The notes beneath the pieces were generated by a model. That model was not told the origin of the DNA and searched no databases. It worked only from the letters and a program-made list of their open reading frames with translations. DNA of 26,221 bases from Candidatus Zixiibacteriota bacterium (GTDB lineage: Bacteria; Zixibacteria; MSB-5A5; GN15; FEB-12): contig JBGSIV010000034.1 in assembly GCA_041742355.1 (NCBI GenBank), positions 1 to 26,221 of the forward strand. Reading direction: 5' to 3'. A program made the position numbers and the translations under genes. Within the stretch, counting starts at the first letter, position 1. Each line of letters begins with the position of its first letter. Below are positions 1-26,221 of this stretch, piece after piece.

Positions 1-1379
1 TTGGTCTCGGCAATACCCACCACGCGCAGCAGGCCGGACGGGCAGCCGCCGGAGCAGTTGCCGTTGGCGCCGTAGCGATAGGTGAAGTATTCCCAGCCGC
101 AGTCGGTGTAGATGTCACCCGGAACGGCCGTCTGGAACGACAGGGCGGAAGCGTCATAGGCGATGAGAATGTCAAAGCCCCAGATGGCTTCCGAACCCTT
201 GGTCACGGTCACGTCAACGTACTCGTGGCCGCCCTGGAACGTGCCGTGCGTCTTCTCGATCACGATTTCGTACGGCTCAGTCGTCAGCACGTTGATGGTC
301 TGGTCGCAGGTCGCGGCCAGGTTGCCATCGGAGTACTCAACGGTGAACACGTAGGCGAAGCCGCCGTCGGCCGGAGACACGGTGTTGAACGTGATCACGC
401 CAGTGTTGGCGTCGATCGAGTAGGTGCCCACCGGAGCCGGAGCCACACCCACGATCGAGAACGTACCCGGGTCGCAGTCAACGTTGGCAGCATTGATGTC
501 AACATTGATCGAGTTGCCCATACCCACCGGCACCGGAGCCTGGCAGGCGATGGTCGGGGCCACGTTCGAGAACGAGACCTGGAACGCGCAGTCCGTGCCG
601 CCGAACGCGTCAGCTACGCGGACAACCACGTCGTACACCGGGCCCACGTTGGCCAGGGTCGGCGAGAACGACCACACGCCCGAGTTGGCGTCGATCGAAC
701 CGATACCGGAAACCATCGAGAACGTGAAGGGGTCGCCTTCCGTGTCGCTGGCGTTCAGGTCGATCGAAGCAACCGCGCAGTGGTTGAACACCTGGGCTAC
801 GCCCGGGCAGTTCAAGAACGCCGGCGGGATGTTCGGTACCGGCTCGACCAGCAAGCAGTACGGAGCATCGTACCAGTCGGGTTCCACGTCGCCGCTGTTG
901 GTTGACCACAGCCAGACGCCGCCCGGCGGGTAGAACGCCGTGTCGATGCAGAACGTTTCGCCGACGGCGACGTTCACACCGGTGACTGACCACAGGGCGT
1001 GCGTCCCGATCGGGATGCCCGGGGCGCCAATGAGGAAGCCACCGAAGCCGAACTGGTCGCCACCCGTGCCGTCATTGCTGACGTAGTTGACGAACTGGTT
1101 GCTGGCTTCGTAGTAGCCGTTCGGGGCCCACGCGCCAACCGGCACGCCGTAGTTGCCCGTGCCGTCCTGGTAGTAGATCTTGAAGCCGTTGGTGCTGCCG
1201 GCGATCACGTCGGTCGTCACGTTCAGGGTGAACGTGATGGTCGTCGGACCGGGGTTCAGCTTCATGGTCGGGCCGTCCATCCAGGTGTTCGTGAACGACA
1301 CCGTGATGGCATCTTGAGCATTAGCGAGCCCAAATGAAAGAATCATCAACGCAGCGATAAACAAAGCGATGCGTTTCAT
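1..1379 (-). CDS. Large secreted Ig/cadherin-like + cohesin-like surface protein (3' end runs off the window)
   Basis: Translated by hand; absent from the ORF track because it has no stop in the window. ATG at 1379 follows an AGGAG RBS. Signal peptide MKRIALFIAALMILSFGLANA, then an N-terminal beta domain (GSTNGFKIY...FCIDTAFYPPGGVWLW), two cadherin/Ig-like units (ASDTEGDPFTFS...SIDANSGV; SIDANTGVITF) and a cohesin-like segment (EYVDVTVTKGSEAIWGFDILIAYDASALSFQTAVPG). Confidence 0.85.
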   Translation of the reverse strand, partial: MKRIALFIAALMILSFGLANAQDAITVSFTNTWMDGPTMKLNPGPTTITFTLNVTTDVIAGSTNGFKIYYQDGTGNYGVPVGAWAPNGYYEASNQFVNYVSNDGTGGDQFGFGGFLIGAPGIPIGTHALWSVTGVNVAVGETFCIDTAFYPPGGVWLWSTNSGDVEPDWYDAPYCLLVEPVPNIPPAFLNCPGVAQVFNHCAVASIDLNASDTEGDPFTFSMVSGIGSIDANSGVWSFSPTLANVGPVYDVVVRVADAFGGTDCAFQVSFSNVAPTIACQAPVPVGMGNSINVDINAANVDCDPGTFSIVGVAPAPVGTYSIDANTGVITFNTVSPADGGFAYVFTVEYSDGNLAATCDQTINVLTTEPYEIVIEKTHGTFQGGHEYVDVTVTKGSEAIWGFDILIAYDASALSFQTAVPGDIYTDCGWEYFTYRYGANGNCSGGCPSGLLRVVGIAET

Positions 1380-1747
1380 TGTGTACTCCTACTTACTTCG
1401 TTAACAGTTGATGATACGAACTTACGATTACCAGACACGCTTCCCAGAACCCCCTCACGGTCCGTAATAGAACAACCTGCAGGTGAGAGCCACCTAACCC
1501 GCGAGCTGTCCGGTCCGGCAAATGCAGGAAAACGGTCCAGCGATGCGTTCATTCTTTTCACTTGAGCGCGTGTCATAAACGTAACCTCTCTAACGCGTCC
1601 TCCTTCCCATCTATCTTCAGGTTGATGGTTCAGCCGGGGCGGCATGGTGCAGCCCCGACCGGTTTCTATGTACATCCAATTTCTCAATCAATTGTTAAAG
1701 CGCTGCAAGAACCTGGTAAGAACTGGGATCCTACTTCTCCTGGGTGT

Positions 1748-1779
1748 CAAAGCCGCGGCAGGCACACCCGGCCTGCCGC
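1748..1779 (-). terminator. GC-rich hairpin just after the 1794..2870 gene (weak terminator or stabilising stem)
   Basis: 9-bp stem GCGGCAGGC/GCCTGCCGC at 1755-1763 and 1771-1779, with only a short T run on the minus strand. Confidence 0.45.
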
Positions 1780-1793
1780 CACTCACGAATCTT

Positions 1794-2870
1794 CTAGCAG
1801 GCCGGACCCTGGCACGGCGCCGGTCCGCCCTTGAACAGGAAAGCAACCATATAGGTCAGGTCGGCCACGTTGGGCTCGTCGATGCCGATGCAGTTGACAT
1901 TTGCCTTCCACAACGGCACGGGGGCAGGACCGGCCTTGAACAGGAAATTCACGAGGTAGGTCAGGTCGGCGATATTCGGCTGGGGCTTGAAATCGCCGTT
2001 CATATCGCCGCACATGCCTTCGAGCACGGTCAACATGCCGTCGGCCACAAAAACGTAGTTGTAATCGATGACTTTGTCGGTGCGCTCCACGATCTGGAAG
2101 GAGTCGGCCGGCGGCTGGCTCACGCGCTGCCAGTTCAGGCAGACATCCCCGGCCCAAGCGGTGCAGATCCAGTAGTTGGTGTCCTGCACGATGGTGTCTT
2201 TCAGGCCGATGGTGGTGCCGTCCGGCCGGGAGAAGCTGAAGTGGTCGGTGAACTGGTGCTGGACGAGCATGTTCACGGTCCGGTCGAGCCCGGTGGCCGT
2301 GTCGGGAATCATGAGGACGTCGGCCAGCAGCTTGATCAGCACGCCGCCGTTCTGCGGCGCGATGCCGGCCTTGTACCCGCCCGACGGCAGGTTGGCGATA
2401 CCGACGATATTGAGGTCGTAGCCGAATCCGGAGAGCGAGCGGGCGTCAACCGATTCCCAGCCCGAAATCAGCGTGCCGGTCGTGTCCCAGCTGCCGATCT
2501 GCACCTCGTTGGTATCGATAGTAATGAAATCGTAGTCGAGGGGAGTGGATTTGGTCGAGTCGATACAATTGCTACCGGCGTAGTCGTTGCAGATCCAGTA
2601 GGTCGTATCGATCTTCGTCTGCGAGTTTGTCTGGAACAGCATGATGTCGGGGCGGTCGAGCTGGATCCAGAGGTTGAATCCGGCCACCGTGTCACTGAGG
2701 TTCACGATGGAAACGGAAATGACGGTGTTCTGAGCGCCGGGCGCAGCGGTGGTGTCACCGACCTCGATGATGAGCTGCGCCGAGGCTGAGGGAGCGAGCA
2801 GGAATCCGGCAAGCAGGACCACGCACGCCGCGAAAAGAGAATACCCCGGGGATTTCGTGCCGAGGATCAT
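1794..2870 (-). CDS. Secreted cohesin-like + C-terminal dockerin (type I-like) protein
   Basis: GGAGG RBS and signal peptide ending ASA. Cohesin-like start (LIIEVGDTTAAPG...VISVSIVN...VAGFNLWIQLD) and end (VADGMLTV). Duplicated dockerin motif CGDMNGD...NIADLTYLVNFLFKAG / ANVN...NVADLTYMVAFLFKGG. Confidence 0.85.
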   Translation of the reverse strand: MILGTKSPGYSLFAACVVLLAGFLLAPSASAQLIIEVGDTTAAPGAQNTVISVSIVNLSDTVAGFNLWIQLDRPDIMLFQTNSQTKIDTTYWICNDYAGSNCIDSTKSTPLDYDFITIDTNEVQIGSWDTTGTLISGWESVDARSLSGFGYDLNIVGIANLPSGGYKAGIAPQNGGVLIKLLADVLMIPDTATGLDRTVNMLVQHQFTDHFSFSRPDGTTIGLKDTIVQDTNYWICTAWAGDVCLNWQRVSQPPADSFQIVERTDKVIDYNYVFVADGMLTVLEGMCGDMNGDFKPQPNIADLTYLVNFLFKAGPAPVPLWKANVNCIGIDEPNVADLTYMVAFLFKGGPAPCQGPAC

Positions 2871-2912
2871 ACCTTCCTCCTTAAAACGATACTGATGTTA
2901 CGTTCGTGTCGA

Positions 2913-3212
2913 AATACCCTTAGCCTAGGTGCGATAAGGTATCCCCGATACGCAGAGCGTCGTCAGCCGTGCATTTCCCGGAAGACGTATCTCTGGGAAC
3001 TGCGTCAATTGTCGTACCCTTGTTGTTCAGTTGCAGCAGCGTTCTGCAATAGTAACCTGTCAGTATTCCCGTTAGAACGGCTCCCTCACCGTTCGGGATA
3101 GAAGTATCAGACGTTTTGCTCGGAAGGACGGACTCGTCGAAAGTCTCGCTGTGTATACTCTTTTGTGGAGTTCTTACCCATCATCCGAGGCTAATATATG
3201 GCTAAGGGTATT
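2913..3212. repeat. Perfect 13-bp inverted repeat pair (2913-2925 / 3200-3212)
   Basis: AATACCCTTAGCC at 2913-2925 and its reverse complement GGCTAAGGGTATT at 3200-3212. Confidence 0.8.
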
Positions 3213-3221
3213 GGTTGTCAA
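3193..3221 (-). promoter_or_regulatory. sigma70 promoter for the cohesin/dockerin genes
   Basis: Minus strand reads TTGACA (3221-3216), 17-nt spacer, TATATT (3198-3193). Confidence 0.7.
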
Positions 3222-3402
3222 CAGGAAAAACGAAAACAGATTGCAGGCGCGGTTCTTCCATCGAGGTGCTTCGTCGTCCGCTGCCGCTTGTGCGGCGCGA
3301 TGCGCTCTTCCTGCTGTGATCGGGTCGCTGTCCTCCTCTGCGGTCGTCCGGCTGGTATTCACCGGGCCTTGCTGTTAGCGCCGACTATCCGGAAGTGTCT
3401 GT

Positions 3403-3419
3403 TGCAACCGCTGTGCCGA
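3403..3419 (-). promoter_or_regulatory. Putative sigma54 (-24/-12) promoter
   Basis: Minus strand TCGGCACAGCGGTTGCA has GG-N10-GC spacing and closely matches YTGGCACG-N4-TTGCW. Confidence 0.5.
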
Positions 3420-3721
3420 TAGGGAAAGCAACTGCACTCCTGTTTCGCCCGCGCGGCCCGATCATAATGCCTTGCCCCGCAAAGCCCTTCCCATCTTCCT
3501 GCAACGGCGTTCAACTATTGCACACCGATGTGCGCTCCGGGGCTGGCCAGTATATGCAGCCCGGTGCATCGCCCGACCGCAACGGTGTCATATTTGCCCG
3601 ATTGCCGCTCCGGGTGTCGCGCACCAAATGATCGGGGCGAGGTTGCCGACACATTAATGAGAAGGATGTCCGCCGCCCCAAAGGACTCAGCCTGTCCGCT
3701 CCGGCTGAACTCCGGCAGAGG

Positions 3722-3736
3722 CGATTATTATAATCG
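3722..3736 (+). promoter_or_regulatory. 7-1-7 palindrome overlapping a TATAAT -10 box upstream of the HDOD gene
   Basis: CGATTAT-T-ATAATCG, with TATAAT at 3729-3734. Confidence 0.4.
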
Positions 3737-3787
3737 GGTTTGTCTCCACTTCGGCGATATGGCCGAGGTGCGCCGGTGTGAATACGC

Positions 3788-5275
3788 ATGACGACGTTGA
3801 CTCGGGATAAAATTCACGAACGCCTCGAGAAGGTCTCCAATCTCCCGTCGATTCCGCAGGTGGTCCTGCGCATCAAGGAGATTACCGAGAATCCCCGTGC
3901 GTCGGTGGCCGACCTGGCCAACTGCATCCTCTCGGACCACCAGCTGACGAGTCGCATTCTGCGCATGGCCAACTCGGCCTACTACGGCGAGTTCTCGGGC
4001 CGCATCACGACCGTGACGCATGCGATTATGCTCATGGGTTTCCGCGCGGTGCGCAACATCGCCATTTCCATGGTCGTCTACGACGCCGTGAACAACATCT
4101 CCCGCGGCAGTGGCTTCGACGTCAAGGCTTTCTGGTCCCGGTCGCTGGCCAGCGGGGTCATCGCCAAGTACCTCGCCCGGGCGACCGGCCAGACCAAGCT
4201 GCTCGAGGTCGCTTTCATCGCCGGCTTCATGCACGATATCGGGCAGGTTGTTCTCGCCAGCGCGTTTCCCGATGAGTACCGGGAGTTGAGCAAGGTTGAC
4301 TGCGACCCTTCGCAGTTGCAGAACACGGAGCGCATTCTCCTCGGGGTCGACCACCTCGAGGCGGGCGAGTACATCGCCCGGAAGTGGAATCTGCCCGAGC
4401 TGCTGGTTCGGCCGATCGGCGAACACAACCGCCCCCGTTCGGTTACCGGTTCGAAAACTTCGTCGGGCGGTATGCTTGTCGACATGGTGCACCTGGCCGA
4501 GCTGGCCTATCCGTTTGTCTCCGGTCGGGCCTCGATTGAGAGCCGGGGCTTCAAAGAGCTGGCCCGCCTAGCCTTCGATCTCCTCGCGATCGACCGGAAG
4601 GTCATGGCCGACCTGCCCGAAGTCTGCCGCAAGGAGGTTGGGGAAATCGCCAGTGATCTGGATATCAAGATCGACCCGCTCCGCCCTGAAACCGCTTCCG
4701 GCGCCAACCTGGCGGAGATTCAGCGGCAACTCTCGGGAAAGGAGTTGCAGCTCTCCTTCCTGCAGGGGGCGGCGGAGAGCCTGTTCGAGGCCGGTTCGGA
4801 GGAGGAAATCCTCCTGATCGTCTGTGAAGCGGTCTTCCGGGGGCTTCAGATGGGACGGGTGCTGTTGCTGGAATATGATGCCGACGGTGGGCAATTTGTC
4901 GGCCGACTGGGTTTCGGCGTAGCGACCCAGGAAGAAATCAAGGCCCTCTCGTTCCCGGCCGACGGCGGTCTCTTCGGGCACCTGCGCACGGACGGCCGGA
5001 CAATCCCAGTGGGCGATCGCACGGCCGACATCGATCAGGTGATTGCGGCGACCTCGGGATGGAATGCGCTGGGGACGTCGGCTTTTGTGCTCGCCCCGGT
5101 CAAAGTGCTCGACCGGGTGGTTTTCGCCCTCTTTGCCGACTCAACCGACCGGGGCCTGCCAATCGATGACGAGCGGCTGCGCTCGGTCACCGCATTGGCC
5201 AACCAGGGATCGATGGCCCTGGAGCGCATTCTCATGCGCCGCCGGCTGTCCGAAGATGACACGGGCAAGTCATAG
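3788..5275 (+). CDS. HDOD domain signalling protein with C-terminal GAF-like domain
   Basis: HDOD motifs LPSIPQ, LRMANSAYY, FW.RS, AGFMHDIG, GVDHLEAG and WNLP. GAF-like C-terminus (AFVLAPV...LFADS...ALANQGSMALE). Confidence 0.9.
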   Translation: MTTLTRDKIHERLEKVSNLPSIPQVVLRIKEITENPRASVADLANCILSDHQLTSRILRMANSAYYGEFSGRITTVTHAIMLMGFRAVRNIAISMVVYDAVNNISRGSGFDVKAFWSRSLASGVIAKYLARATGQTKLLEVAFIAGFMHDIGQVVLASAFPDEYRELSKVDCDPSQLQNTERILLGVDHLEAGEYIARKWNLPELLVRPIGEHNRPRSVTGSKTSSGGMLVDMVHLAELAYPFVSGRASIESRGFKELARLAFDLLAIDRKVMADLPEVCRKEVGEIASDLDIKIDPLRPETASGANLAEIQRQLSGKELQLSFLQGAAESLFEAGSEEEILLIVCEAVFRGLQMGRVLLLEYDADGGQFVGRLGFGVATQEEIKALSFPADGGLFGHLRTDGRTIPVGDRTADIDQVIAATSGWNALGTSAFVLAPVKVLDRVVFALFADSTDRGLPIDDERLRSVTALANQGSMALERILMRRRLSEDDTGKS

Positions 5276-5285
5276 CTCTCTTCGG

Positions 5286-5750
5286 CTACCTATCCAATCC
5301 CACGGTCGTGAAGCGCCAGATCGGCGAGCTGGTCTCTTCCCCGCGCTTATCCTCGGCCACCACCCGCCAGTAGTAGGTCACGCCGTAGCCCAGTTCGGTG
5401 AGCGGGGCGAAGAGCGGGTCGGAGAGATTGCCCGCTATAATGGGCGGGCCGAGTTCGGTTCCGAAGTAGACGTCGTAGTAGATCTGGTCGCCGTCGGGGT
5501 CGGATGAGGTCCAGCGGAGGATTGGCTCCCGGCTGACTCCGGTGGCGCCGTCGGCCGGGGATCCGGCGACGACGTTGTTGACCGGTTCGGTGGGTGGGTT
5601 GTTGGGCGCGGCCGGGTTCTTCTTGTCGTCGTCGCCGCAGGCGTTGACAAAGAGAAGAAGCAGAACAAGTGCGAGTACCGGCACGATTCCCTTTACGAAC
5701 GCCGACCAAATTAAATCTGTATGATTCCTGGCTGTCATATGCATTTCCAT
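5286..5750 (-). CDS. Lipoprotein with Ig/FN3-like (SbsA-type) domain
   Basis: Hydrophobic stretch followed by lipobox VNA-C. Motif SPADGATGV...LRW...DPDGDQIYYDVYFG...TYYWRVVAED...WRFTT. The start could be 5750, 5744 or 5738. Confidence 0.8.
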   Translation of the reverse strand: MEMHMTARNHTDLIWSAFVKGIVPVLALVLLLLFVNACGDDDKKNPAAPNNPPTEPVNNVVAGSPADGATGVSREPILRWTSSDPDGDQIYYDVYFGTELGPPIIAGNLSDPLFAPLTELGYGVTYYWRVVAEDKRGEETSSPIWRFTTVGLDR

Positions 5751-5839
5751 CGACTGCGGTCACTTGCGGACCGGCCTCAGGGAACGTGATGTCCCGCTTT
5801 CAGCGCTTGCCCCGCGCGTCGGGCCTTGACAGACATCGG

Positions 5840-7006
5840 CTATCGATTCCCTTTAGCCCGGTTGTGGGTTGTGCACAGCATCTGGCAGTTCTTCGCCGAG
5901 CTGTCGCCTCCCTTGCTCCATGCGGAAACGTGGTCGGCGTCCATTTCGTCGAACTTATAGATTCTGCCGTTGTTTGCGTTGTCGCCAATCGCGCAGAGAG
6001 GGCAGTTGCTCTTGCCTTTGGTTTCGGCCGCCTGCGTCTGCTTCTCGTACGCCGCCCGCTTGGTCTTCGTGTCGAACACCCGCACGTCCAACAACTTCGT
6101 ATCCTTCGACCCGCCCAGCAAATACTCGAAAATTCCCTTGTGGCCGTTCACGAAGTCGTCGGCCATGAGTTTTTTCACCGCCGCCGCCATCTTCTTCGGA
6201 TCGTAGCTCTTGGCGTGGTACTGCTCGTACAGCCGGCCCCACTCCAAGCCCTTCATCTCCGGGTAAACGTCCTCGAACACCGTTGAAACCCAATCGATCA
6301 CAGCATTGAAATAGGCCTTCAGCTCGTTGATGTTCTTAAGGTTGCGGTGGGCGCTCATGTACGAGCCGATATCCCCCTTGCTCACCCAATCCAGCGCCCG
6401 CTCCAGAAACTCCTGCCGGTTGGCGCTGCCCTTAATGTACGCGCTCCACATCTGGATGTTCGCGTTCTGGCTGTTGCTGAATTCTTCCTTGGCTTTGGTG
6501 ACGAACGGGCCGGAGTAAATGGCGTTGAGAAGCTCCTGATCGTTGAGCGGAACGCCCGCGATGTTGATCGTCTCGAACCACTGCTTGATCTCGGTCTCCG
6601 TACCTTCGCACTCGTAGATCAGCAATTTCGAATCCCGAATTATAGCTTGCTGGTCCGCAGGCAGGCTGGTGAAGTTCTTGGGGTTGCCGCCGTCCATGAT
6701 CGCGAACTTGTCAGTGACGAAGCGCCCGATGCTGGTGATGCGCTGCTGGCCGTCGAGCACCTCAAACTTGTCCTCCGCAACCTTGTTGAAGTAGATCAGT
6801 CCCAGCGGATACCCCTTGAGCAGCGATTGGATAACCGCCTGCTCCTTTTTGCCGCCGCCGTCGGCATAGATGTAGTTCCGCTGATACTCCGGCTGAATGG
6901 TGAGCTTTCCACCCAAGCCGAAGAGCCCCTTACCCTCCAACTGGTTGTACACAAACCCGTCGCAAATCTGGGCGACAGTGATGTCATTCTTGAGCGTCGT
7001 TTTCAT
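5840..7006 (-). CDS. DUF262 (GmrS/ParB-like) + C-terminal HNH endonuclease
   Basis: DUF262 motifs QPEYQR, DGQQR and FETIN. HNH motif CPLC...[12 protein letters not shown]...NCQMLC..HN. The start overlaps the methyltransferase stop (ATGA). Confidence 0.9.
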
Positions 7007-8259
7007 TTTTTGTTCTTCCTTGGAGGCCGGGTGCTACGGCGGCGGATGAGAATTCTCTGGTAAAGCGCTACGTAGTACTCGCCGTCAACGATGTAGTAAG
7101 TCTGGTCGGCCGGTGGTCTGTCGACCTTAATCGCTGGCTGATCGTTGAGCTTCCCAACCACCTTTCTTTTTCCGTCTTTATCCACCTGAATCTGGTTCGG
7201 GAATGTCTTGCTCGCGACGCGAAACCAAGTCTTTGTGATTCCCAGAATCTCGAACTGGTCGGGGTTGTACCTGTCAAGGAAAGTGATCGGGACGCCCATG
7301 GCACCGTCGTAGTCGCTTGGGATTGCGTCGGTGAACGGCACCTCGATCGCATCGTAATTGGCGTACCGGTCGTAGGCCGCCTTGCCCCTTAGTTCCTTGT
7401 GCTTGCTGAATCTCAGGTTGCGATCCATCGACATACACTCTAGCGTCTTGTGGCGTGTCCCATGGTCGAGGTTTGTCCACCAACGGACGCCCTTGACTCG
7501 GATGTACTTCGCGCCGTTTTCATCAACGCGCGAACCGGCCGCGTTCAGTGGATAGTGGTCCGGAACGCGGAACTCGCGGTCGCCGCTGTGGATGGTGACA
7601 CCCATCCATAGTTTGTCGGCCTTGATGAGCGGGAAGATCTCTTTGTACGTGATCGCCTGAACGTTGCCGATGACTATGAACCGCTTATCATACTGTATGA
7701 GTTGGGCCACGTATTCACGGAAGAGGGAGAAGGGCGGGTTGGTGACGACGATGTCTGCCTCTTTTAGGAATGCGACGCATTCCGCACTACGGAAGTCCCC
7801 GCCGGGATATCTGTCTGGGTCGCCTTTGAGTGGAATGCGGTTGGCCTTGTTGCGCTGGAGGAACAGTTCGACGTCGGTCAGGTTTGCGGCTCCGTCGCCG
7901 TCCTCGTCCTTCACGCGGTCGAGGATGACGGCCAAGGCCTTGGGCTTCTGGCGCTTGCCGTTGCCCTCGTTGTATTCCGGGAACAACGCGCCCTGCCCGG
8001 CGATGGGAGAGCCATCGTAGCTGGTGGTGATGAGCCTCTTGAGGCCGAGCTTGTTGAAGTTGGCGGCGAAGTACTTGAAGAAGTTGCTCTCGAAGGGGTC
8101 GTCGCAATTGCAGTAGACGACCTTGCCACGGAAGGTATCGGGGTCGTACTCAAGGTAGGCTTCGACTTCCTTCTGGATATCCACGTATTGGGTATAGAAC
8201 TCGTCCTGCTTGGCGGCCTTGGCGGCGCTGAGGCTGCGGTTGAGCGATTTGCTGGCCAT
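7003..8259 (-). CDS. Adenine-specific DNA methyltransferase, EcoRI family
   Basis: Motifs [18 protein letters not shown], catalytic NPPFS and YD...MGVPITFLD. An alternative GTG start lies at 8295. Confidence 0.9.
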
Positions 8260-8327
8260 GGCGCGATTGGCTTCCTTGAGTTTTCTTGACGTCACTTCCG
8301 GCTAACGCTGTTCATACTGCCCACTCG

Positions 8328-8355
8328 AAGATATGTCGCCCCTTGTAAAGATCAA
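8328..8355 (-). promoter_or_regulatory. Putative sigma70 promoter of the methyltransferase-HNH operon
   Basis: Minus strand TTGATC, 16-nt spacer, TATCTT. Confidence 0.4.
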
Positions 8356-8451
8356 GCACAATCCTGTCCCGGCAACTTTCCCGTTGACTAACCTCAACTG
8401 TCGGGCCATTTTGACCACTAATTAGCACGAACGCAGATAAGGATACCGACC

Positions 8452-9435
8452 ATGGCCAAGGGCAAGGCAAAGACCGCAACGACGAAAAAGAAAATGTCCC
8501 AGACCACGCGGGAGATTATCAAGACCGCCATCTTCCTCACTATCGTCGGTATTCTCGTCGCCGTCTACGTCGTCTACCCGCTCCTGAAGAGCAAGACCGC
8601 TATGGGGCGGCAGGACGGAGAAGAGTCGCTGAAGATCGAGTCGCTGCCGCCGAACGATCCGGCGGCCTGTGTCGAGGCCGGCCTCGTTTGCGATACGTTC
8701 CGTGTCGAAGCCGACGGCATCACGGCGCTGGCGGCTCTCTACATTGCCGCGTCCCCGGACAGCCTGGCGGCCGAACCCGGCACGGTCATTCTCCTGCACG
8801 CCGACACGAGCAACCGCAACGCGCTGCTCCCCTGGGCGCAGCAGTTCACCGACAGCGGTTACCATGTCGTCCTGTACGACCAGCGCGCCTCCGGCTATTC
8901 TTCGGGCAGCTATCATGGCGAAGGCTGGTACGAAGCGAATGACCTGGAGGAGATGATCGCCTGGCTCGAACTGCACGACCGCCTCACTCATCCGCTCTTT
9001 GTCGTCGGCCGGGGCGTTGGCGCCGACGCCGCCCTGCTGGCGTCGCTGGAGGAACCGCGCATCGACGGTGCCGTCGCTATCGAGCCGTACCTCTCGACCG
9101 ACCGCATGTGGGATATGAAGCGTAAGGAGCACGGCCTCTACTGGTTCCCTTTCCACAAGACCATGCTCTGGTGGTGGTACAACATTCGTTCGAGCTATGC
9201 TGCCGCCTACCGGGAGGTTGGGGACCTCGAGGCGGTGCCCAATCCGACGCTGCTTATTGTTCCGACGGATGCCCTTGATGCCGAAGAAGTAGTGACCCTG
9301 CGCGATCTCTCCGAAAAGGAGCAGCTCACGGTCCAGACCACCGCTGAGGGGCAGCTCCTCGGCGCGATCTTCGATTTCATACGGGCTCGCACCCCGAAAC
9401 CGGAAGTGCCGGCCGATACGGCCACCGCGCCCTGA
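8452..9435 (+). CDS. Membrane-anchored alpha/beta-hydrolase-fold protein (nucleophile Ser apparently absent)
   Basis: N-terminal TM helix, then TVILLH, GYHVVLYDQRASGYSSG and EANDL. The elbow reads GRGVGA instead of GxSxG. Confidence 0.85.
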   Translation: MAKGKAKTATTKKKMSQTTREIIKTAIFLTIVGILVAVYVVYPLLKSKTAMGRQDGEESLKIESLPPNDPAACVEAGLVCDTFRVEADGITALAALYIAASPDSLAAEPGTVILLHADTSNRNALLPWAQQFTDSGYHVVLYDQRASGYSSGSYHGEGWYEANDLEEMIAWLELHDRLTHPLFVVGRGVGADAALLASLEEPRIDGAVAIEPYLSTDRMWDMKRKEHGLYWFPFHKTMLWWWYNIRSSYAAAYREVGDLEAVPNPTLLIVPTDALDAEEVVTLRDLSEKEQLTVQTTAEGQLLGAIFDFIRARTPKPEVPADTATAP

Positions 9436-9603
9436 TCTCCGGACCGGTCCGGTTCATCGGCCCCCACTTGCCTCCCGGCTGTGCTTCACTGTATATTGCC
9501 CCCGGTCGAATTGAACCAATGTGCAGCCTGCCCGGTTGTTACCAGTGGCAGCGCCCGGCAGGGGCGCTCCGCGGCAACCGTCAGCATACTTAGAGGATGA
9601 CTC

Positions 9604-10809
9604 ATGAACGCAGCAGCTATAGCCCCCGATGTCTGGTGGGTTGGCGTCAAGGACCCCGGCCTCCGGGTGTTCGACATCATCATGGCCACCGAACACGGCA
9701 CGACTTACAACGCCTATTTGATCAAGGGCGCCAACCGGATCGCTCTCGTTGACACCGTCAAGGAAGGGTTCACCGACGAGTATTTCCGGAATATCGAGGA
9801 GATCGTCCCGCTCGATCAGATCAGCCTCCTTGTGGTCAACCACACCGAACCGGATCATTCCGGCGCTATGCACGCCCTTCTGGACCGGTTGCCCAATCTC
9901 GAGATCGTGTGCGCCACCGCCGCCCTGCCGTTTGTCAGGAACGTGCTCAACCGCGACGCCAAGATCACGACGGTCAAGGACAACTCCGAAATCGACCTCG
10001 GCGGCAAGAAGTTGATTTTCAAGGCGACCCCGTACATGCACTGGCCGGACACGATGATGGAGTACCTCACGGAGGAGGGCATTCTCTTCTCGTGCGACGG
10101 TTTCGCGGCCCATGTCGCGTTCGACTCTCTCTGGGCCGACGAGAGCACGGTGGATTTCGATCATGAGGTGCATTACTACTACGACGCCATCATGCGCCCG
10201 TTCGCGCACTATATCAGGAAGAACCTGGCTAAGCTCGACGGTCTCGATATCCGCATGATCGCCCCTTCCCACGGCCCGTTGATCCGACGCGAGATCGGCC
10301 CGCATATCGACCGCTACCGCCAGTGGGCCGTCGACAAAACCGAAGGCAAGAACCAGGTCGCGATCGTGTACGTCAGCTCCTATGGCAACACCGGCAAGAT
10401 CGCCGATGCTATCGCCGCCGGACTGCGGAGCCGGGGCTACCAGACCGCTATGATCAACGCCGCCGAGTGTGAGGTCGAAGCGACCCGCGACACGCTCGAA
10501 TCTTCCCGCGCCATCCTGTTCGGCACGCCGACGTTTGCCGGCGACGCGGTGCGCCCCACGTGGGATGTCGTCAACCTCCTCTCCACCATCTCCACCCGCG
10601 ACACCCGGGCGGGGGTCTTCGGTTCCTACGGCTGGGGGGGCGAAGGGGTCAAGCTGGTTCATCAGCGCCTTGACGGCATGAAGATCAAGACGTTCGAGGA
10701 GATTTTCAAAGCCCGCCTCGTGCCGTCATCGGCGGAGATGGGGGGAATAGACGAGTGGGTGGGCAAGTTTGCCGCGTTTATCGAGGAGAAGAGCCAATCC
10801 TCTGAGTAG
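9604..10809 (+). CDS. fprA: Flavodiiron protein (A-type flavoprotein; O2/NO reductase)
   Basis: Metallo-beta-lactamase di-iron motifs GTTYNAY, HTEPDH, HWPD, SCDGF and PSHG. Flavodoxin domain motifs SSYGNT and FGSYGWGGE. Confidence 0.95.
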   Translation: MNAAAIAPDVWWVGVKDPGLRVFDIIMATEHGTTYNAYLIKGANRIALVDTVKEGFTDEYFRNIEEIVPLDQISLLVVNHTEPDHSGAMHALLDRLPNLEIVCATAALPFVRNVLNRDAKITTVKDNSEIDLGGKKLIFKATPYMHWPDTMMEYLTEEGILFSCDGFAAHVAFDSLWADESTVDFDHEVHYYYDAIMRPFAHYIRKNLAKLDGLDIRMIAPSHGPLIRREIGPHIDRYRQWAVDKTEGKNQVAIVYVSSYGNTGKIADAIAAGLRSRGYQTAMINAAECEVEATRDTLESSRAILFGTPTFAGDAVRPTWDVVNLLSTISTRDTRAGVFGSYGWGGEGVKLVHQRLDGMKIKTFEEIFKARLVPSSAEMGGIDEWVGKFAAFIEEKSQSSE

Positions 10810-10836
10810 TCGGAGCACAGACGAGAGGGTGACCGG

Positions 10837-11436
10837 ATGACTGACGACAAGCTCAAGAAGTACCGCGCGAAGCGTGATTTCGACAAGACCGCCGAACCAG
10901 CCGGCGACACGCCTGCCGAAAACGAGGCCGGCCGCCCCATCTTCGTCATACAGAAACACGATGCATCCCGCCTCCACTACGACATCCGCATCGAGATGAG
11001 CGGCGTCCTCAAGTCATGGGCGGTGCCCAAGGGGCCGTCGCTCAACCCGGCCGACAAGCGCCTTGCGGTTGAGGTCGAGGATCACCCGCTGGACTACGCC
11101 GATTTCGAGGGGACCATTCCCGAGGAGGAGTACGGCGGCGGCACGGTCATGGTCTGGGATTTCGGCACCTACACGAATATCAAGCGGGTGAAGGGGGATG
11201 CCATGGTCACCATGCAGGAGGCCTACGAGATGGGGACGATTGAGATCGAGCTGTCGGGGCAGAAACTCCACGGCGGCTATGCCCTTCGGCGGTTCAAGCG
11301 TGAAGGGGATAAAGACCAGTGGCTCTTGATCAAGATGAAAGACGCCCACGCCGATCCCGCGCGGGACATCACGAAGACGGATCCGGATTCGGCGAAAACG
11401 GGGCGGACGCTGAAGGAGATCTCCACGAATACATGA
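10837..11436 (+). CDS. Stand-alone LigD 3'-phosphoesterase (PE) domain protein
   Basis: Motifs Y..KRDF.KT.EP, FVIQKHDASRLHYDIR, SWAVPKGPS, EDHPLDY and GGGTVMVWD. Confidence 0.92.
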   Translation: MTDDKLKKYRAKRDFDKTAEPAGDTPAENEAGRPIFVIQKHDASRLHYDIRIEMSGVLKSWAVPKGPSLNPADKRLAVEVEDHPLDYADFEGTIPEEEYGGGTVMVWDFGTYTNIKRVKGDAMVTMQEAYEMGTIEIELSGQKLHGGYALRRFKREGDKDQWLLIKMKDAHADPARDITKTDPDSAKTGRTLKEISTNT

Positions 11437-11493
11437 TTGACAAACGGTTCGCTCATACCCGACTGGTGAATCAGCCGCCCCCCACTTTCCCCA

Positions 11494-11521
11494 TTGCAAA
11501 ATCCGCCCACAGCCGTATAAT
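11494..11521 (+). promoter_or_regulatory. sigma70 promoter of hflX
   Basis: TTGCAA (11494-11499), 16-nt spacer, TATAAT (11516-11521). Confidence 0.55.
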
Positions 11522-11572
11522 TAATGCGGACCAAACCGATCAACAAAACTCAAGGAGTCGGCTGACAGCCCG

Positions 11573-12685
11573 GTGGCCATAGACCTGCGCAAAGTGGAAA
11601 TCGAGAAGGCGATCCTCATCGGGATTGCCACCACCTCCCGCGACAAAGTCGCGGTCGAGGAGTCCCTGGACGAGCTTGCCGCCCTCACCGTATCGGCCGG
11701 AGCACAGGTGGTCGGCCGTCGCGTTCAGGTCCGCCCCGCCCCCGATCCCGCCACGTATATCGGCAAGGGCCTGGTCGAGGAGATCAAAACCCAACTGATC
11801 GAAGTCGGCGGCAACTGCGTCATTTTCGACGATCCCCTCTCCCCCGCCCAGCAGCGCAACCTTGAGGAGCGGATCGAGGCAAAGGTGATCGACCGTCCGG
11901 TACTTATCCTCGATATCTTCGCCACCCGCGCGCGCACGGCCGCCGCCCGCCTGCAGGTTGAACTCGCCCAGCTTGAATACACTCTCCCCCGGCTGACCGG
12001 CGCGTGGGTGCACTTCTCCCGCCAGTACGGCGGTATCGGCTCGAAGGGGCCGGGTGAAACGCAGCTTGAAATCGACCGGCGCCAGATCCGCACCAAGATC
12101 TCTCATCTCAAGCAGCGGCTCGAAAAACTTGACACCCAGCGCTCGGTCCAGCGTAAAGCCCGCCAGGAGATGTTCAAGGTCGCCCTGGTCGGCTACACCA
12201 ACGCCGGCAAGTCGACGCTGTTCAATCGCCTGACCAAGGCGGATGTCCGCACTGCCGATATGCTCTTCACCACGCTCGACTCGACCACCCGGGTCATGTC
12301 CTCCGGCTACCCCTGCCGGGTGCTTTTTTCCGATACGGTCGGGTTCATCAAGAAATTGCCGCACCAGTTGGTGGAGTCGTTCAAATCCACCCTTGAGGAG
12401 GTTGCCCAGGCCAACCTGCTCCTCCATGTCGCCGATATCGCCGATCCGCATCTGGATGAGCACATTGCCCAGACCCGCCAGGTGCTGGCCGAAATCGGCG
12501 CCGAGAAAGTGCCTTACCTGATGGTGTATAATAAGATAGACGCCAATCCCGAGTTTGTGGTGAATAACGGCCGCGGCGAGAAGATGTTTTTCATCTCGGC
12601 TCTGGCCAACCGGGGTCTGGCGGCTCTCCAGGCTGAGTTGATCTCCCGGTCCAGCAAATCAGGTTCCGAATCTTACTCATTCTAA
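11573..12685 (+). CDS. hflX: Ribosome-associated GTPase HflX
   Basis: Motifs LQVELAQL, GPGETQLE.DRR, G1 GYTNAGKST, FTTLD, DTVGFI and NKID. GTG start with an AAGGAG RBS. Confidence 0.96.
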   Translation: MAIDLRKVEIEKAILIGIATTSRDKVAVEESLDELAALTVSAGAQVVGRRVQVRPAPDPATYIGKGLVEEIKTQLIEVGGNCVIFDDPLSPAQQRNLEERIEAKVIDRPVLILDIFATRARTAAARLQVELAQLEYTLPRLTGAWVHFSRQYGGIGSKGPGETQLEIDRRQIRTKISHLKQRLEKLDTQRSVQRKARQEMFKVALVGYTNAGKSTLFNRLTKADVRTADMLFTTLDSTTRVMSSGYPCRVLFSDTVGFIKKLPHQLVESFKSTLEEVAQANLLLHVADIADPHLDEHIAQTRQVLAEIGAEKVPYLMVYNKIDANPEFVVNNGRGEKMFFISALANRGLAALQAELISRSSKSGSESYSF

Positions 12686-12737
12686 GTCAAGCTCTTCGCG
12701 GGTTTTGCCGATACTTGCCATAAGGAGTAGGCATAGT

Positions 12738-13091
12738 ATGGCAAAACCGATTCTCATCGTGGATGACAACCCGAACATGTCTTCGCTTTTGTCGGACATG
12801 CTTGAGGTGTTTGATTACCCGTCCGACCGTGCCGGCGACGGCCAGGAGGCGCTGGATAAACTTGAGAACCAGCCGTTCTCCATGGTCATCACCGACATGC
12901 GCATGCCCAACATGACCGGACTCGAATTGATCCAGAAGATCAAGGAGAAGTATCCCAAACTTCCGGTCGTGCTCATCTCCGGCTACTCGATCAACGAATT
13001 CGACTCTGTCGAAGGACAGCGTCCCGACGGCTTCCTCGCCAAACCGTTCATGATGTCCGATGTCGAGAAGCTGTTGAACTCGCTGCTGTAG
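12738..13091 (+). CDS. Single-domain response regulator (CheY-like receiver)
   Basis: Motifs ILIVDD, ITDMRMP.MTG, ISG and LAKPF. ATG at 12738 follows TAAGGAG. Confidence 0.93.
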   Translation: MAKPILIVDDNPNMSSLLSDMLEVFDYPSDRAGDGQEALDKLENQPFSMVITDMRMPNMTGLELIQKIKEKYPKLPVVLISGYSINEFDSVEGQRPDGFLAKPFMMSDVEKLLNSLL

Positions 13092-13129
13092 CCCGGCCCT
13101 GATTTCTCGTTCCCGCAGAATACGTGATT

Positions 13130-13159
13130 GGCCCCGCCCCGGCGGGGCCTGCCTTTTTA
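13130..13159 (+). terminator. Rho-independent terminator after the response regulator
   Basis: GGCCCCGC-cccg-GCGGGGCC followed by TGCCTTTTT. Confidence 0.6.
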
Positions 13160-13185
13160 TACCCACCGATCACAAGGCCCAAAGT

Positions 13186-13221
13186 GAAAACACCGCCGCC
13201 TCCTTCCGGAAGCGGCGGTGT
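13186..13221 (-). terminator. Rho-independent terminator after the Cys-rich dockerin gene
   Basis: Stem ACACCGCCGC/GCGGCGGTGT followed by TTTT on the minus strand. Confidence 0.6.
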
Positions 13222-13264
13222 CGCTCACGTTCTCCCGCGTCGAAGGCGGGGAGCATCAGAATCC

Positions 13265-15811
13265 TTACGGGCATGGCTTCGGCGCCGGGCCTCCCTTGAA
13301 GAAGTAATTCACCAGGAACGTCAGGTCGGCGACATTAACCAGTCCGTCGCCGTTGACATCCGCCTCTTCGAGGCACGGCGGTTTCGGCCCGCCCTTGAAC
13401 AGGTAGTTTACGAGGAAGGTCAGGTCGCCGACGTTAACAATACCGTCGTTGTTGACATCCCCCTTGAGGTTGCAGCAGCCGTCGCAGCACAACCGCAGCC
13501 GCACCATGAGGTAGTCGACCTCGGTGTCATCCTGGAACATGATGTCGAGGTCGCCGTCCTGCACGGCCGCCAGCACATTCGTGATCCCGAGCCCGCTCGC
13601 CGGCAGGTTTGCCAGGTCGAGGCACATTGTCAGCGTGTCTCCCGTACTCCAGGACGGATCGGCACCGCCGGTCGCGATCGACTGGAGTGTGTTCATCCGG
13701 ATACCCCAGACGAATACCCCGTTCTCCGCGATATACAGCGCGTCGGTCCCGGCGATCGATCCGCTCGCATACACGCGGAAGCACAACTGCGCTCCGATCA
13801 GGCAGCACTTCGCGGTATCGTACAGGTTCGTGAAGGTGTGTCCGAAACACTGGTCCTCCATGAACTGATCGAACTGGTTGGTCGAGCCGAGCGGACAGGT
13901 CAGAAGCGGAATCAGATCCGCTCCCGGCGTCGCCGGCTCCGGCCCAGCGAAGTTGTCGATTGTCCCGGCCACCACGCTCGGCGTCTGGATCGAACCATCC
14001 GCGCAGGTCGTGTCGTGGTTGCCGAAATCCAATCCGCCGATGAAACCGCCCGGCGGCAGATTGACCTGGTGGAAGACGGTCGGCGGGAAGGTCTGTACCC
14101 AGCCCGGCTGCACCGTCTCCCAGACCTGGTAAGTCCCGGGCGGCAGGCCGGCGAAGTCATACTGACCCACGGCGTTGGTCACCACCGAACCGACATAAAA
14201 CCCGCCAAGGTAGACGTTGATCGTCCAGCCCGCCATCGGCGGCTCGTTGGCATCCCAGACGCCGTCGCAGTCGAGGTCGTTCCACTTGTGTCCCTGCAAC
14301 GAACCGTCGCCGCCCGAGCAGCAGTGCTCCAGGTGCGCCGCATGGATCGCCTGGTCGGCCGCCGTGATGACGCCGTCGCAATCGTAGTCGTTGCACGGCA
14401 GTTTGCCCAGCCAGTCATCCGGCTTGACGCACTTGTCGTTGTTGATGTCGAGGTACCGCCCGGTCAGGAACCGGCACAGCTTCCCGTTGACAAACAGCAT
14501 GATCCGGCAGTCGCTGCAGGTGAGGCTCGACGCCTTGATCGAGAAGTAGTGGTTTCCCGTGGCAGGATCGCAGCTGTCGGGATATACGATCGGCCAATCC
14601 GGGTGCTCGCCCGGACACGGCTTCGCCTCGCACTGGCTGAAGTCCATCCAGACCGCCGACGGATCGCAGAAAGGATTGCCGCAGCTGTCTTTCACCGTTA
14701 CGACGTGCGTGATATCCCCGGTCGGGCAGATGAGCACGCAATCGTCCGTGACGACACTATCGCAGAGCGGCGGGCCGGGCGCGCACGGATCCGAATCACA
14801 GCAGTGACCGTGGTGGGCCGTGTGGATGGCGAAATCGGCCGCCGTGATCGACCCGCTGCAGTCGTAGTCGTTGCAGAATTTGTCGATCCAGTCCTTGTCG
14901 GTGACGCAGTTGTCGTTGTTGATATCGAGGAACTTCACCTTGATCGTCTTGCAGATCGACCCCGGCGTCAATTGCAGGAACGCGACGCAGTCGATACAGT
15001 CGAGGCTCGAGGCCTTAATCGAGAAATAGTGCTTCCCGGTGGCCGGATTGCAGCTGTCGGGATAGACCAGCGGCCAGTCGGGATGGGCCCCCGGACAGGG
15101 CTCCGCGGCACACTGGTCAAAGTTGAGCGCCAGGTCGGGCAGGCACAGCGGATTGCCGCAGCTGTCTTTCACGGCGACCGTGTAGACAATATCGCCGATC
15201 GGGCAGATAACCATGCACGGATCGGCCACCACGCTGTCGCAGAACGCCGGCCCTGCGGGACAGGGCTGGCTCTGGCAGCAGTGCCCCTGGTGGGCGGCCA
15301 GGAAGGTGGCATCCGCGCCATCGGTGACGTTGTCGCAGTTGTAGTCGCTGCATGTCTGGTTGGCGAAGAAGTCGCTCGTCTCCACACAGAGCGAGCCGTT
15401 CTGATCGAGGAACCGGAACCGCACCGGTTTGCACGGCACGCCATTGATATAAAGCGCCGCCGAACAGACAAAGCAGTCCGGAACGCCCATTTGCAGTTGG
15501 AACGTATGCTCCCCCGTCGCCGGGTCGCATGACACCGGGTACACCAGGGGCCAGTTCGGATACAAGCCCGGACACGGCGTCACGGGGCAGTTGCTGAAGT
15601 CAAGGTACGTGCCAGTCATGTCACACACCGGCATGCCGCAGCTGTCGAGGACCGTAACGACAAAGGGAATGTCGCCGGACGGGCAAATCACGGGGCACGA
15701 AGTAAACGTAACCGAATCACAGAAGGGATCCGGACACGCCGCGCCGCTGTCGCCGACCAGCCCGAGCAGCACAACCACCATACAACCGATGAAGAGATCA
15801 ATCCTTCTCAT
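13265..15811 (-). CDS. Secreted Cys-rich repeat protein with three dockerin-like repeats, an SdrD-B/Cna-B domain and a C-terminal dockerin
   Basis: ATG at 15811 after GGAAGGAAG, then a signal peptide and three ~160-aa repeats. SdrD-B-like domain GHKWNDLDCDG.WD.NEP...G.Y.V.E...DFGN. Terminal dockerin GDVNNDGIVNVGDLTFLVNYLF / ADVNGDGLVNVADLTFLVNYFF. Confidence 0.88.
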   Translation of the reverse strand: MRRIDLFIGCMVVVLLGLVGDSGAACPDPFCDSVTFTSCPVICPSGDIPFVVTVLDSCGMPVCDMTGTYLDFSNCPVTPCPGLYPNWPLVYPVSCDPATGEHTFQLQMGVPDCFVCSAALYINGVPCKPVRFRFLDQNGSLCVETSDFFANQTCSDYNCDNVTDGADATFLAAHQGHCCQSQPCPAGPAFCDSVVADPCMVICPIGDIVYTVAVKDSCGNPLCLPDLALNFDQCAAEPCPGAHPDWPLVYPDSCNPATGKHYFSIKASSLDCIDCVAFLQLTPGSICKTIKVKFLDINNDNCVTDKDWIDKFCNDYDCSGSITAADFAIHTAHHGHCCDSDPCAPGPPLCDSVVTDDCVLICPTGDITHVVTVKDSCGNPFCDPSAVWMDFSQCEAKPCPGEHPDWPIVYPDSCDPATGNHYFSIKASSLTCSDCRIMLFVNGKLCRFLTGRYLDINNDKCVKPDDWLGKLPCNDYDCDGVITAADQAIHAAHLEHCCSGGDGSLQGHKWNDLDCDGVWDANEPPMAGWTINVYLGGFYVGSVVTNAVGQYDFAGLPPGTYQVWETVQPGWVQTFPPTVFHQVNLPPGGFIGGLDFGNHDTTCADGSIQTPSVVAGTIDNFAGPEPATPGADLIPLLTCPLGSTNQFDQFMEDQCFGHTFTNLYDTAKCCLIGAQLCFRVYASGSIAGTDALYIAENGVFVWGIRMNTLQSIATGGADPSWSTGDTLTMCLDLANLPASGLGITNVLAAVQDGDLDIMFQDDTEVDYLMVRLRLCCDGCCNLKGDVNNDGIVNVGDLTFLVNYLFKGGPKPPCLEEADVNGDGLVNVADLTFLVNYFFKGGPAPKPCP
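14318..15727 (-). repeat. Three tandem intragenic repeats (~480/477-nt period)
   Basis: Each unit runs xFCDSV...ICP.GDI...V.DSCG.P.C...CPG..P.WP.VYP.SC.PATG.H.F...LD.N...CV...C.DY.C......AD......H..HCC. Confidence 0.9.
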
Positions 15812-25797: not shown

Positions 25798-25909
25798 TCG
25801 GACCTCCCTACGTTTTTGCTGCATAGTTGATCTTCAATGTGGCCGAGTTAGTCCAGAATACCGGCCCTGCCAAGGATTGTCAAGCGGAGGTTGCGGGGTG
25901 AGATTCTCC

Positions 25910-26089: not shown

Positions 26090-26221
26090 TGTACGGTGTC
26101 AAGACATAGTATACACTGTGTGTCAGGACATGGTATACATCCTTGGTTGATCAGCCGGGACCAAGAGGGTCACCGACCGGTGGGTCGTCAAGTCGATCTC
26201 ACGGACGTACATGTGCCGGTA
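26090..26221 (-). mobile_element. Probable IS481-family insertion sequence, right end (truncated)
   Basis: Begins TGT. Contains two 20-nt direct repeats GTGTCA(A/G)GACAT(A/G)GTATACA at 26096 and 26120. A minus-strand ORF ends inside the terminal repeat. Confidence 0.6.
26123..26221 (-). CDS. C-terminal fragment of a probable IS481-family transposase
   Basis: Open frame YRHMYVREIDLTTHRSVTLLVPADQPRMYTMS* runs in from the window edge and stops within the IS end. Confidence 0.5.
   Translation of the reverse strand, partial: YRHMYVREIDLTTHRSVTLLVPADQPRMYTMS

Follow-up and report, generated by a model that had tools for sequence, protein, structure and literature searches.

The locus

The window analyzed here is a stretch of 26,221 nucleotides that makes up an entire contig (JBGSIV010000034.1, C34 in our numbering) of the Candidatus Zixiibacteriota bacterium assembly GCA_041742355.1, a genome of 4.37 Mb in 310 contigs with 93.8% completeness. 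Its minus strand encodes three proteins—p1, p2, and p3, from genes i, ii, and iii—which a first-pass annotation, made from the sequence alone, had described as a non-cellulosomal cohesin–dockerin surface assembly system of three secreted Cys-rich proteins without a glycoside hydrolase domain. The open reading frames (ORFs), the signal-peptide-like N-termini, and the lack of a glycoside hydrolase all stand, but only p3 is strongly Cys-rich (7.8% Cys vs 2.4% in p1 and 2.5% in p2). The modules are real, but they are part of a genome-wide and phylum-wide system and not of a three-gene locus. In the following, CohN and CohB denote the two cohesin-type domains of p1, DocB its internal dockerin, and DocA the C-terminal dockerin of p2 and p3 (Table 1).

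Table 1. Features of genes i, ii, and iii and their flanks, in window coordinates
Feature	Position	Strand	Description and basis
Gene i (p1)	1..1379 (ORF 3..1379, 459 aa, open at contig end)	-	signal-peptide-like N-terminus
CohN, p1 residues 23-182	834..1313	-	N-terminal cohesin-fold domain; AlphaFold2 (AF2) model and fold search
Two cadherin/Ig-like spacer domains, p1 residues 183-366	282..833	-	Big_9, weak Cadherin_4, family profile
CohB, first 93 residues of a conserved ~210-aa cohesin-family domain	3..281	-	profile match
Probable 5' leader of p1	1380..1614	-	AGGAG ribosome-binding site just before ATG; RNA contigs
Gene ii (p2), 358 aa	1794..2870	-	signal peptide, cohesin with two hairpin inserts, C-terminal DocA
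DocA of p2, residues 284-358	1797..2021	-	superposition on solved dockerins; own-genome profile 93.9 bits
Sigma-70-like promoter match upstream of p2	3193..3221	-	TTGACA-17-TATATT, 11/12 consensus match
Gene iii (p3), 848 aa, 66 Cys	13265..15811	-	three Cys-rich repeats, SdrD-B-like domain, ~175-aa domain, DocA
Three ~157-aa repeats (47% identical to the first)	14309..15736	-	two Ca-loop-like motifs plus a single helix at the end of each
DocA of p3, residues 781-848	13268..13471	-	PF00404 59.8 bits, E 3.1e-16, cut-off 22.9

The i–ii pair is conserved; gene iii encodes cargo and is not linked to it. Directly downstream of p2, a p1-type gene is found in 24/29 of the best-scoring relatives' loci and in 10/10 larger loci—five of which overlap with the former, for a total of 29/34 genomes—and these counts come from kin genomes and are thus interdependent. 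Two of the five exceptions have less than 500 bp of sequence downstream; in the other three, the genome has a second p2 copy, and it is this copy that has a CohB ~1.5 kb downstream. In 11 relatives' loci of 13–16 kb around p2, a p1-type gene follows p2 throughout, and no p3 homolog is reported near the pair. What had been taken for a three-gene system is hence reduced to the pair i–ii, with p3 as one of ~117 tagged proteins. The organism labels on homologs of genes i and ii are mostly Zixibacteria, the rest reading "bacterium", division GN15, Deferrimicrobium (once), and Ignavibacteriales (one).

Structure of p1 and p2

Within the window, p1 is the 5' half of an 840-aa scaffoldin-like protein, and the contig end cuts CohB. 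The full-length form is P0165 (840 aa, 99.1% identical to p1 over all 459 residues), which carries the C-terminal domain (CTD) of the type IX secretion system (T9SS; PF18962 at residues 763–837, 54.3 bits vs a cut-off of 27). The T9SS tail of p1 is known from this protein, as contig C34 ends before that portion; the remaining half of p1 did not turn up on any other contig of the assembly (no end overlap, best other contig 68%). Together, p1 and P0165 give the order signal peptide, CohN, two cadherin-like domains, CohB (P0165 residues 367–581), DocB, a ~95-aa beta domain, and CTD, with CohB, DocB, and the beta domain together taking up residues 367–751. Among ten relatives' p1 loci, the CohB–DocB–beta–CTD end is present in all ten and CohN in seven. 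Mean ortholog identity is 33% for CohN—the most variable domain of p1—62% for CohB, and 74% for DocB.

The first-pass annotation had read p1 as Ig/cadherin plus cohesin-like, which holds for residues 183–366 and for the last 93 residues of this assembly-truncated chain, while CohN at the N-terminus was missed. By sequence, CohN has no cohesin match; an Atlas search gave a weak lead (0.88). We compared predicted models with 48,161 chains in an unbiased search, scored by Z, root-mean-square deviation (rmsd), and aligned residues. For the CohN model (AF2 predicted local distance difference test, pLDDT, 91.7; predicted TM score 0.86), the top 13 chains are cohesins or cohesin-containing, the best being 4ums_A (Z 13.0, rmsd 3.0, 139 aligned). 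The best non-cohesin chain, a CLIPPER adhesin, reaches Z 10.2, and adhesin domains lie at Z 8–10. Hence, CohN has a cohesin fold that matches type I cohesins first, as the fold search decided where sequence had not.

CohB, on the other side, can be recognized by profile: all 18 matches to PDB sequences at E≤10 are cohesins or cohesin-bearing (best E 0.0019), and HHalign relates it to relatives' Pfam-positive cohesins (P 96.4). CohB is therewith assigned by profile to the cohesin family. Outward positions of its predicted canonical binding sheet are 87% conserved compared with 66% on the other sheet, a comparison for which 13 and 16 positions were assigned manually. HHalign places DocB with DocA (P 97.5), and this dockerin homolog has two unlike halves, making it asymmetric. 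The ~95-aa beta domain after DocB looks cohesin-like by eye but gave no profile match (P 0.6) and is left without an assignment. The spacer domains match Big_9 (25.8 bits vs a cut-off of 23.6) and, weakly, Cadherin_4; their family profile matches protocadherin-15 (E 7.8e-10).

For p2, the reading as cohesin-like plus dockerin is borne out. In a model built from 117 homologs (AF2 pLDDT 91.5), the top 20 chains for the cohesin are cohesins or cohesin-like modules, led by 6kgc_A (Z 17.3, rmsd 2.1, 141/144 aligned); the best chain of another fold has Z 9.9, and the Foldseek matches listed to rank 25 are cohesins. The possibility that the cohesin-like segments are generic Ig domains—raised with the first-pass annotation—is addressed by p2 and CohN models that match cohesins first. 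The terminal DocA of p2 superposes on 4fl4_A (Z 9.6, rmsd 1.8, 65 aligned) and 2ccl_B (Z 9.3, rmsd 1.7). Of the Pfam searches proposed at the time, PF00404 is over cut-off for the p3 dockerin, but the terminal dockerin of p2 has no Pfam match, and the cohesin family PF00963 stays below cut-off genome-wide. Two long, disulfide-tipped beta-hairpin inserts of p2 (residues ~77–126 and 223–268) bear invariant Cys pairs: C94, C102, C236, and C244 are retained across the 117 homologs. A Foldseek likeness of p2 to pore-forming toxins (TMq 0.15–0.20) was rejected, being caused by these hairpins and absent from the 48,161-chain search list. With a cohesin fold (residues 31–283) and a dockerin tail, p2 is therefore a cohesin–dockerin adaptor by architecture. 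Its family is present in 97/151 genomes of the phylum—the set over which all phylum-wide counts were taken—and in 52/55 genomes of the organism's own taxonomic family.

On a rough codon-bias score (9 reference genes, 3862 ORFs including spurious ones), p1 ranks 42/3862, p2 298, and p3 932, with a DocA median of 2037, which is a hint. Contigs assembled from RNA libraries (92–100% identity; 4 runs from 3 studies) span p1 and extend upstream to 1502–1614, a weak hint, and are nearly absent beyond p1 across 20 kb; as the runs (4 of 10 listed) were picked with bases 1–6000 and the data are contigs, they allow no ranking of genes. The promoter-like site upstream of p2 is a consensus match alone, from a scan that gave 2 sites vs 1.1 expected by chance.

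DocA, a genome-wide dockerin tag

The two terminal dockerins had been noted for a shared local signature. The signature is anything but local: its strict form occurs in 8 ORFs of the genome, and a DocA profile trained on 21 copies from this genome detects the module in 117 ORFs, C-terminally in 107. With PF00404, 74 matches reach E≤0.01, the best being the DocA of p3. Among 106 full-length copies, the Asp at position 12 is found in 100% in both loops, and both helices follow the same consensus. The other Ca-ligand positions are D/N in 99–100% (position 1), N/D in 87–89% (position 3), and N in 44–46% (position 9); 91% of the copies have a terminal Cys. Judged by these positions, DocA is a symmetric type of dockerin, Cys-flanked and highly conserved; symmetric dockerins support dual binding in cellulosomes, according to the available text of PMC12484212. 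A loose signal-peptide heuristic is positive for 79/98 DocA ORFs compared with 81/300 control ORFs.

A function had been left unassigned by the first-pass annotation. The kinds of cargo can now be named from a domain scan of 102 of the 117 DocA bodies (the remainder being short fragments, p2 and p3, and one ORF that was not retrieved). Seventeen bear peptidases—six S8, four M14, plus C25, M4, M1, C10, C1, M28, and trypsin-like—and the scan further gave one weak C39 match, one GH16, one metallophosphoesterase, and one cytochrome c7. Many bodies are beta-propellers or lectin/Ig/TSP3 proteins, and about one-third have no Pfam match. DocA cargo is, as far as domain matches tell, mostly peptidases, beta-propellers, and adhesin-type proteins, and one GH16 against 17 peptidases agrees with the earlier label "non-cellulosomal". 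One cargo protein (L097, C139:10965-14147) matched Toxin_R_bind_N with 28.6 bits; the match overlaps a far stronger LamG and is read as a shared lectin fold, and the toxin reading was rejected.

DocA shares its place at the C-terminus with the T9SS CTD. Among 84 CTD ORFs, 5 also match the DocA profile, and for 25/96 DocA bodies a paralog with a CTD tail exists at E<1e-15, one example showing 57% identity over 712 aa. The two appear as nearly exclusive tails that alternate on the same bodies.

p3 is, by its tail, predicted to be a cargo protein. It had been described as a multi-dockerin protein; its terminal dockerin passes PF00404, but its three repeats hold shortened dockerin-like motifs. In HHalign, the repeats match DocA at P 85.9 (E 5e-6), most of helix 1 falling into gaps, and they have no Pfam dockerin stretch and no PDB sequence match. 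"Multi-dockerin" hence overstates p3, as the dockerin-like motifs miss most of helix 1. The repeat family comprises 218 cluster representatives; the best 150 of these have DocA as their tail in 70 cases, a CTD in 20, the repeat in 41, and something else in 19. Many of the rows P0300–P0389 form a large group of proteins of ~205 aa that look secreted and consist of a single p3-type repeat; their nearest Atlas clusters, Krumholzibacteriota and Eisenbacteria (scores 0.80–0.81), are a lead.

Cohesin-like domains and export systems

The genome-wide count proposed with the first-pass annotation sets the 117 DocA ORFs and their partner domains beside ~40 cohesin-like domains in 38 proteins. Among these 38, 21 carry DocA and 10 carry a CTD, p1 being counted without its off-contig tail. 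One of them, C52:1913-2827 (L161), is a 305-aa protein of a single cohesin and a CTD without a dockerin; orthologs of 280–330 aa and 33–42% identity occur in five relatives' loci. It is a good candidate, by its domain content, for a plain DocA anchor. Other arrangements are found as well. C237:4355-7156 (L013) has two paralogs of the N-terminal arm of p1 (CohN plus two cadherin-like domains), which end in DocA and not in CohB–DocB–CTD, and C284:21285-24137 (L009) combines CohB, HYR repeats, and DocA in one protein. Four relatives (G050, G089, G093, and G124) have ORFs of 1207–1386 aa with at least two Pfam-positive cohesins, each adjoining a gene for a ~290-aa cohesin–CTD protein; their family is one where CohB was not found.

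In Bacteroidota, CTD proteins cross the outer membrane via SprA and are attached by PorU. The present genome resembles these T9SS in its PF18962 CTDs (p1 and ~84 ORFs) and in its SprA (TIGR04189, 611 bits vs a cut-off of 200), PorU (643.8 bits vs 420; over cut-off in 147/151 phylum genomes), and PorV-family genes (8 matches over cut-off; one copy scanned with the PorV-specific model NF033710 gave 155 vs a cut-off of 250). It differs in that a second, dockerin-based tail alternates with the CTD. At C126:605-10614 (L160) and on C4 (L159), porU is followed by a gene for a 950-aa protein with two PorV-family stretches and one for an M6-like CTD protein, and sprA lies directly upstream of selA–selB. 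Besides the T9SS, the genome has two secretin clusters with GspE/PilB-like ATPases.

Proposed function and alternatives

We consider p1 to be probably a T9SS-exported and anchored surface scaffoldin, which would capture dockerin-tagged proteins—p2 and p3 included—by Ca-dependent binding. This builds on the observed folds, tails, genes, and linkage, from which we infer export, anchoring, and binding. By analogy to Bacteroidota, p1 would cross the outer membrane via SprA and would then be attached by PorU. DocA cargo, which is mostly CTD-less, would leave by another route—most simply by one of the two systems resembling the type II secretion system or the type IV pilus. Outside, the symmetric DocA would bind a cohesin on a CTD-anchored protein, and p2 might act as adaptor. 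Such an arrangement could serve to keep proteolytic and binding proteins on the cell surface. As receptor for DocA, our judgement tentatively favors CohB, as its predicted binding sheet is the more conserved, it is part of proteins with a CTD, and the dockerin that shares its chain is usually DocB and not DocA; CohN is a rather unlikely receptor, and single-cohesin CTD proteins like C52:1913-2827 are an unlikely one. In any case, CohB cannot be a universal receptor, as it was not found (at E≤1e-25) in 33/151 genomes, including eight whole families.

This last observation is one of several that weigh against a p1-type scaffoldin. At most two cohesin-like domains were detected per protein among the 38, with profiles that miss divergent cohesins. 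No protein in this genome matches PF00963 over cut-off, while 139/151 phylum genomes have such a match, and identity to solved cohesins is 9–19%, a fold likeness which alone shows no function. CohN is 33% conserved while DocA is highly conserved, and three CohB proteins themselves bear DocA, as do 21 of the 38 cohesin-like proteins, often with the dockerin directly after the cohesin; in one family, 7/8 proteins carry DocA. The CohB–DocB linker is 6 residues long in 114/114 readable rows, of 131. On the export side, the route of DocA cargo is one that we infer, and the GldM-type motor of Bacteroidota (TIGR03517) gave no match here, as in the controls, which were also negative; GldK, L, and N were not searched.

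The fixed CohB–DocB linker and the cohesin-then-dockerin order fit a rigid stabilizing module as well as a receptor. Such modules are known, as the X module of type II dockerins is a dockerin-stabilizing module. The cohesin folds might hence be spacers or dockerin-stabilizing modules and CohN a variable adhesin tip, with DocA binding another receptor or working alone as a tail stabilized by Ca2+ and disulfides. Chains in which a cohesin-like domain immediately precedes a dockerin (p2, CohB–DocB, and on C77 and C259) speak for this, and CohN varies as an adhesin tip would, with adhesin domains scoring well against it. Then again, CohN and p2 match type I cohesins above every adhesin domain. CohB also occurs without DocB (5/14 proteins, one of them the truncated p1) and has the more conserved predicted binding face, and single-cohesin CTD proteins without a dockerin recur across the phylum. 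As a whole we regard this explanation as unlikely, yet some of the cohesin-like domains may be spacers, as many sit directly before a dockerin.

The p1-type scaffoldin could also be extended into a cross-linked surface coat instead of an enzyme rack. Here, CohB would bind DocA, p2-type or CohN cohesins would bind DocB, and p2 would bridge p1 molecules into a cargo-decorated lattice. The existence of two dockerin classes—symmetric DocA and asymmetric, 74%-conserved DocB—the conserved p2–p1 pairing, the occurrence of each cohesin family in cis with a dockerin, and the seemingly high expression of p1 (codon rank and the weak RNA hint) would agree with such a coat. The expression signs of p2 are much weaker than those of p1 (codon rank 298), a poor fit for a 1:1 cross-linker. 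The coat extends the scaffoldin reading rather than excluding it, and we deem it quite improbable in this form. The same grade of doubt applies to a self-assembling mesh over the outer membrane with two orthogonal pairs, in which the DocA of p2 would sit on the CohB of one abundant, T9SS-anchored p1 and the hairpin-bearing cohesin of p2 on the DocB of another. Such a mesh would be an envelope layer and at the same time a general display platform for more than 100 interchangeable DocA-tagged proteases, propellers, and adhesins. A "lattice", as the first-pass annotation had put it, is possible.

Lastly, the interchangeable and nearly exclusive DocA and CTD tails, along with the many PorV-family paralogs, might suggest that DocA is an export tag: CTD-less cargo would bind a cohesin–CTD carrier in the periplasm and ride it through SprA, or a PorV-family shuttle would read DocA. 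However, 7/9 PorV-family matches have a CTD gene at a distance of no more than 1.4 kb, no DocA gene is found within 4 kb of any of the nine, and the two secretin clusters offer an ordinary route. This makes the export tag very improbable, and a DocA signal read directly by PorV was rejected, as genomic support for it is nil.

Relation to known systems

To our knowledge, cohesin–dockerin assembly has been characterized almost solely in Gram-positive cellulose degraders. With the clostridial and ruminococcal cellulosomes (anchoring cohesin proteins OlpA, OlpC, and SdbA; adaptor ScaC; type I dockerins), the present system shares the cohesin fold, the symmetric cargo dockerin, and the cohesin–dockerin adaptor. 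In contrast to them, it has no cellulases, a Cys-flanked dockerin, cohesins with long disulfide-tipped inserts, and a T9SS tail, where clostridial anchoring cohesin proteins use S-layer homology (SLH) or sortase anchors. Cellulosomes also have a multi-cohesin primary scaffoldin with a CBM3; none was detected in this genome (94% complete, 310 contigs) with the profiles used, which miss divergent cohesins. Going by predicted domains, the system works like a cellulosome in its modules and departs from one in its cargo, which in cellulosomes is mainly cellulases and hemicellulases. What the cell likely has on its surface is a cellulosome relative that bears proteases and adhesins.

The surprise of such a relative is limited, as the concept has already been proposed in silico for other phyla (Cloacimonadota and Planctomycetes). 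For Candidatus Stygibacter (Cloacimonadota), Williams et al. (2021) proposed a cellulosome-like complex in silico. The accessible text (PMC8542988) describes, similar to our system, a cohesin protein with a C-terminal attachment domain and dockerin-tagged S8 and C25 peptidases, and, unlike it, one 3,755-aa scaffoldin with tandem cohesins and carbohydrate-binding modules (CBM2/3). Here, p1 has two cohesins and an internal asymmetric dockerin, no CBM was detected, and ~117 proteins are tagged, in a system conserved across much of the phylum. The "planctosome" of freshwater Nemodlikiaceae (Andrei et al. 2019) is a hypothetical non-cellulosomal, peptidase-bearing cohesin–dockerin complex. As far as its accessible text goes (PMC6461901), its adaptor combines dockerin, HYR, and cohesin—the module set found here in C284:21285-24137—and its anchor is a lamin-tail-domain protein in place of a T9SS tail. 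In the diderm Chlorobium chlorochromatii, the neighboring cohesin and dockerin genes Cag_2037/Cag_2038 are predicted to bind; in the available preprint text (bioRxiv 10.64898/2026.03.19.712371) they form a single giant pair with proposed type I secretion, as opposed to the genome-wide tag described here. For Latescibacteria, no mention of cellulosomes was found in Youssef et al. (2015); the available text of PMC7424252 credits Farag et al. (2017) with a dockerin claim, and that of a giant-gene preprint (10.1101/2023.11.21.568195) makes no mention of Zixibacteria. We found no literature that links Zixibacteria to dockerins, cohesins, or the T9SS in a search that left most subscription journals and supplements outside.

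If true, a phylum-wide diderm version anchored by T9SS would explain what many non-cellulosomal dockerins do and would show how an abundant uncultured sediment lineage keeps enzymes at its surface. It would also supply new disulfide-stabilized, possibly orthogonal cohesin–dockerin pairs for protein engineering.

Further observations on the window

The right end of the contig is a multi-copy repeat, as its final 127 or more bases (26095–26221) are found again at the termini of four further contigs (C65, C117, C270, and C301); no plasmid match was found for it. Just before it, 24931–25824 (minus strand) encodes a secreted-looking protein with a weak FlgD-Ig match that ends just past the first strand motif of a T9SS CTD, and its tail is read as a truncated or degenerate CTD. 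On the plus strand, 22109–24702 joins a cytochrome bd subunit I-like membrane domain to two c-type cytochrome domains and is followed by a gene for a 361-aa membrane protein, and 10837–11436 encodes a LigD 3'-phosphoesterase domain standing alone that adjoins hflX. Relatives have alpha/beta-hydrolase and FprA-like genes shortly before p2, on its upstream side, whereas ~5.5 kb separates p2 from these genes in the window; this stretch includes an EcoRI-type adenine methyltransferase and a GmrSD_N/HNH nuclease (5840–8295, minus strand)—a probable restriction–modification insert between p2 and the alpha/beta-hydrolase gene.

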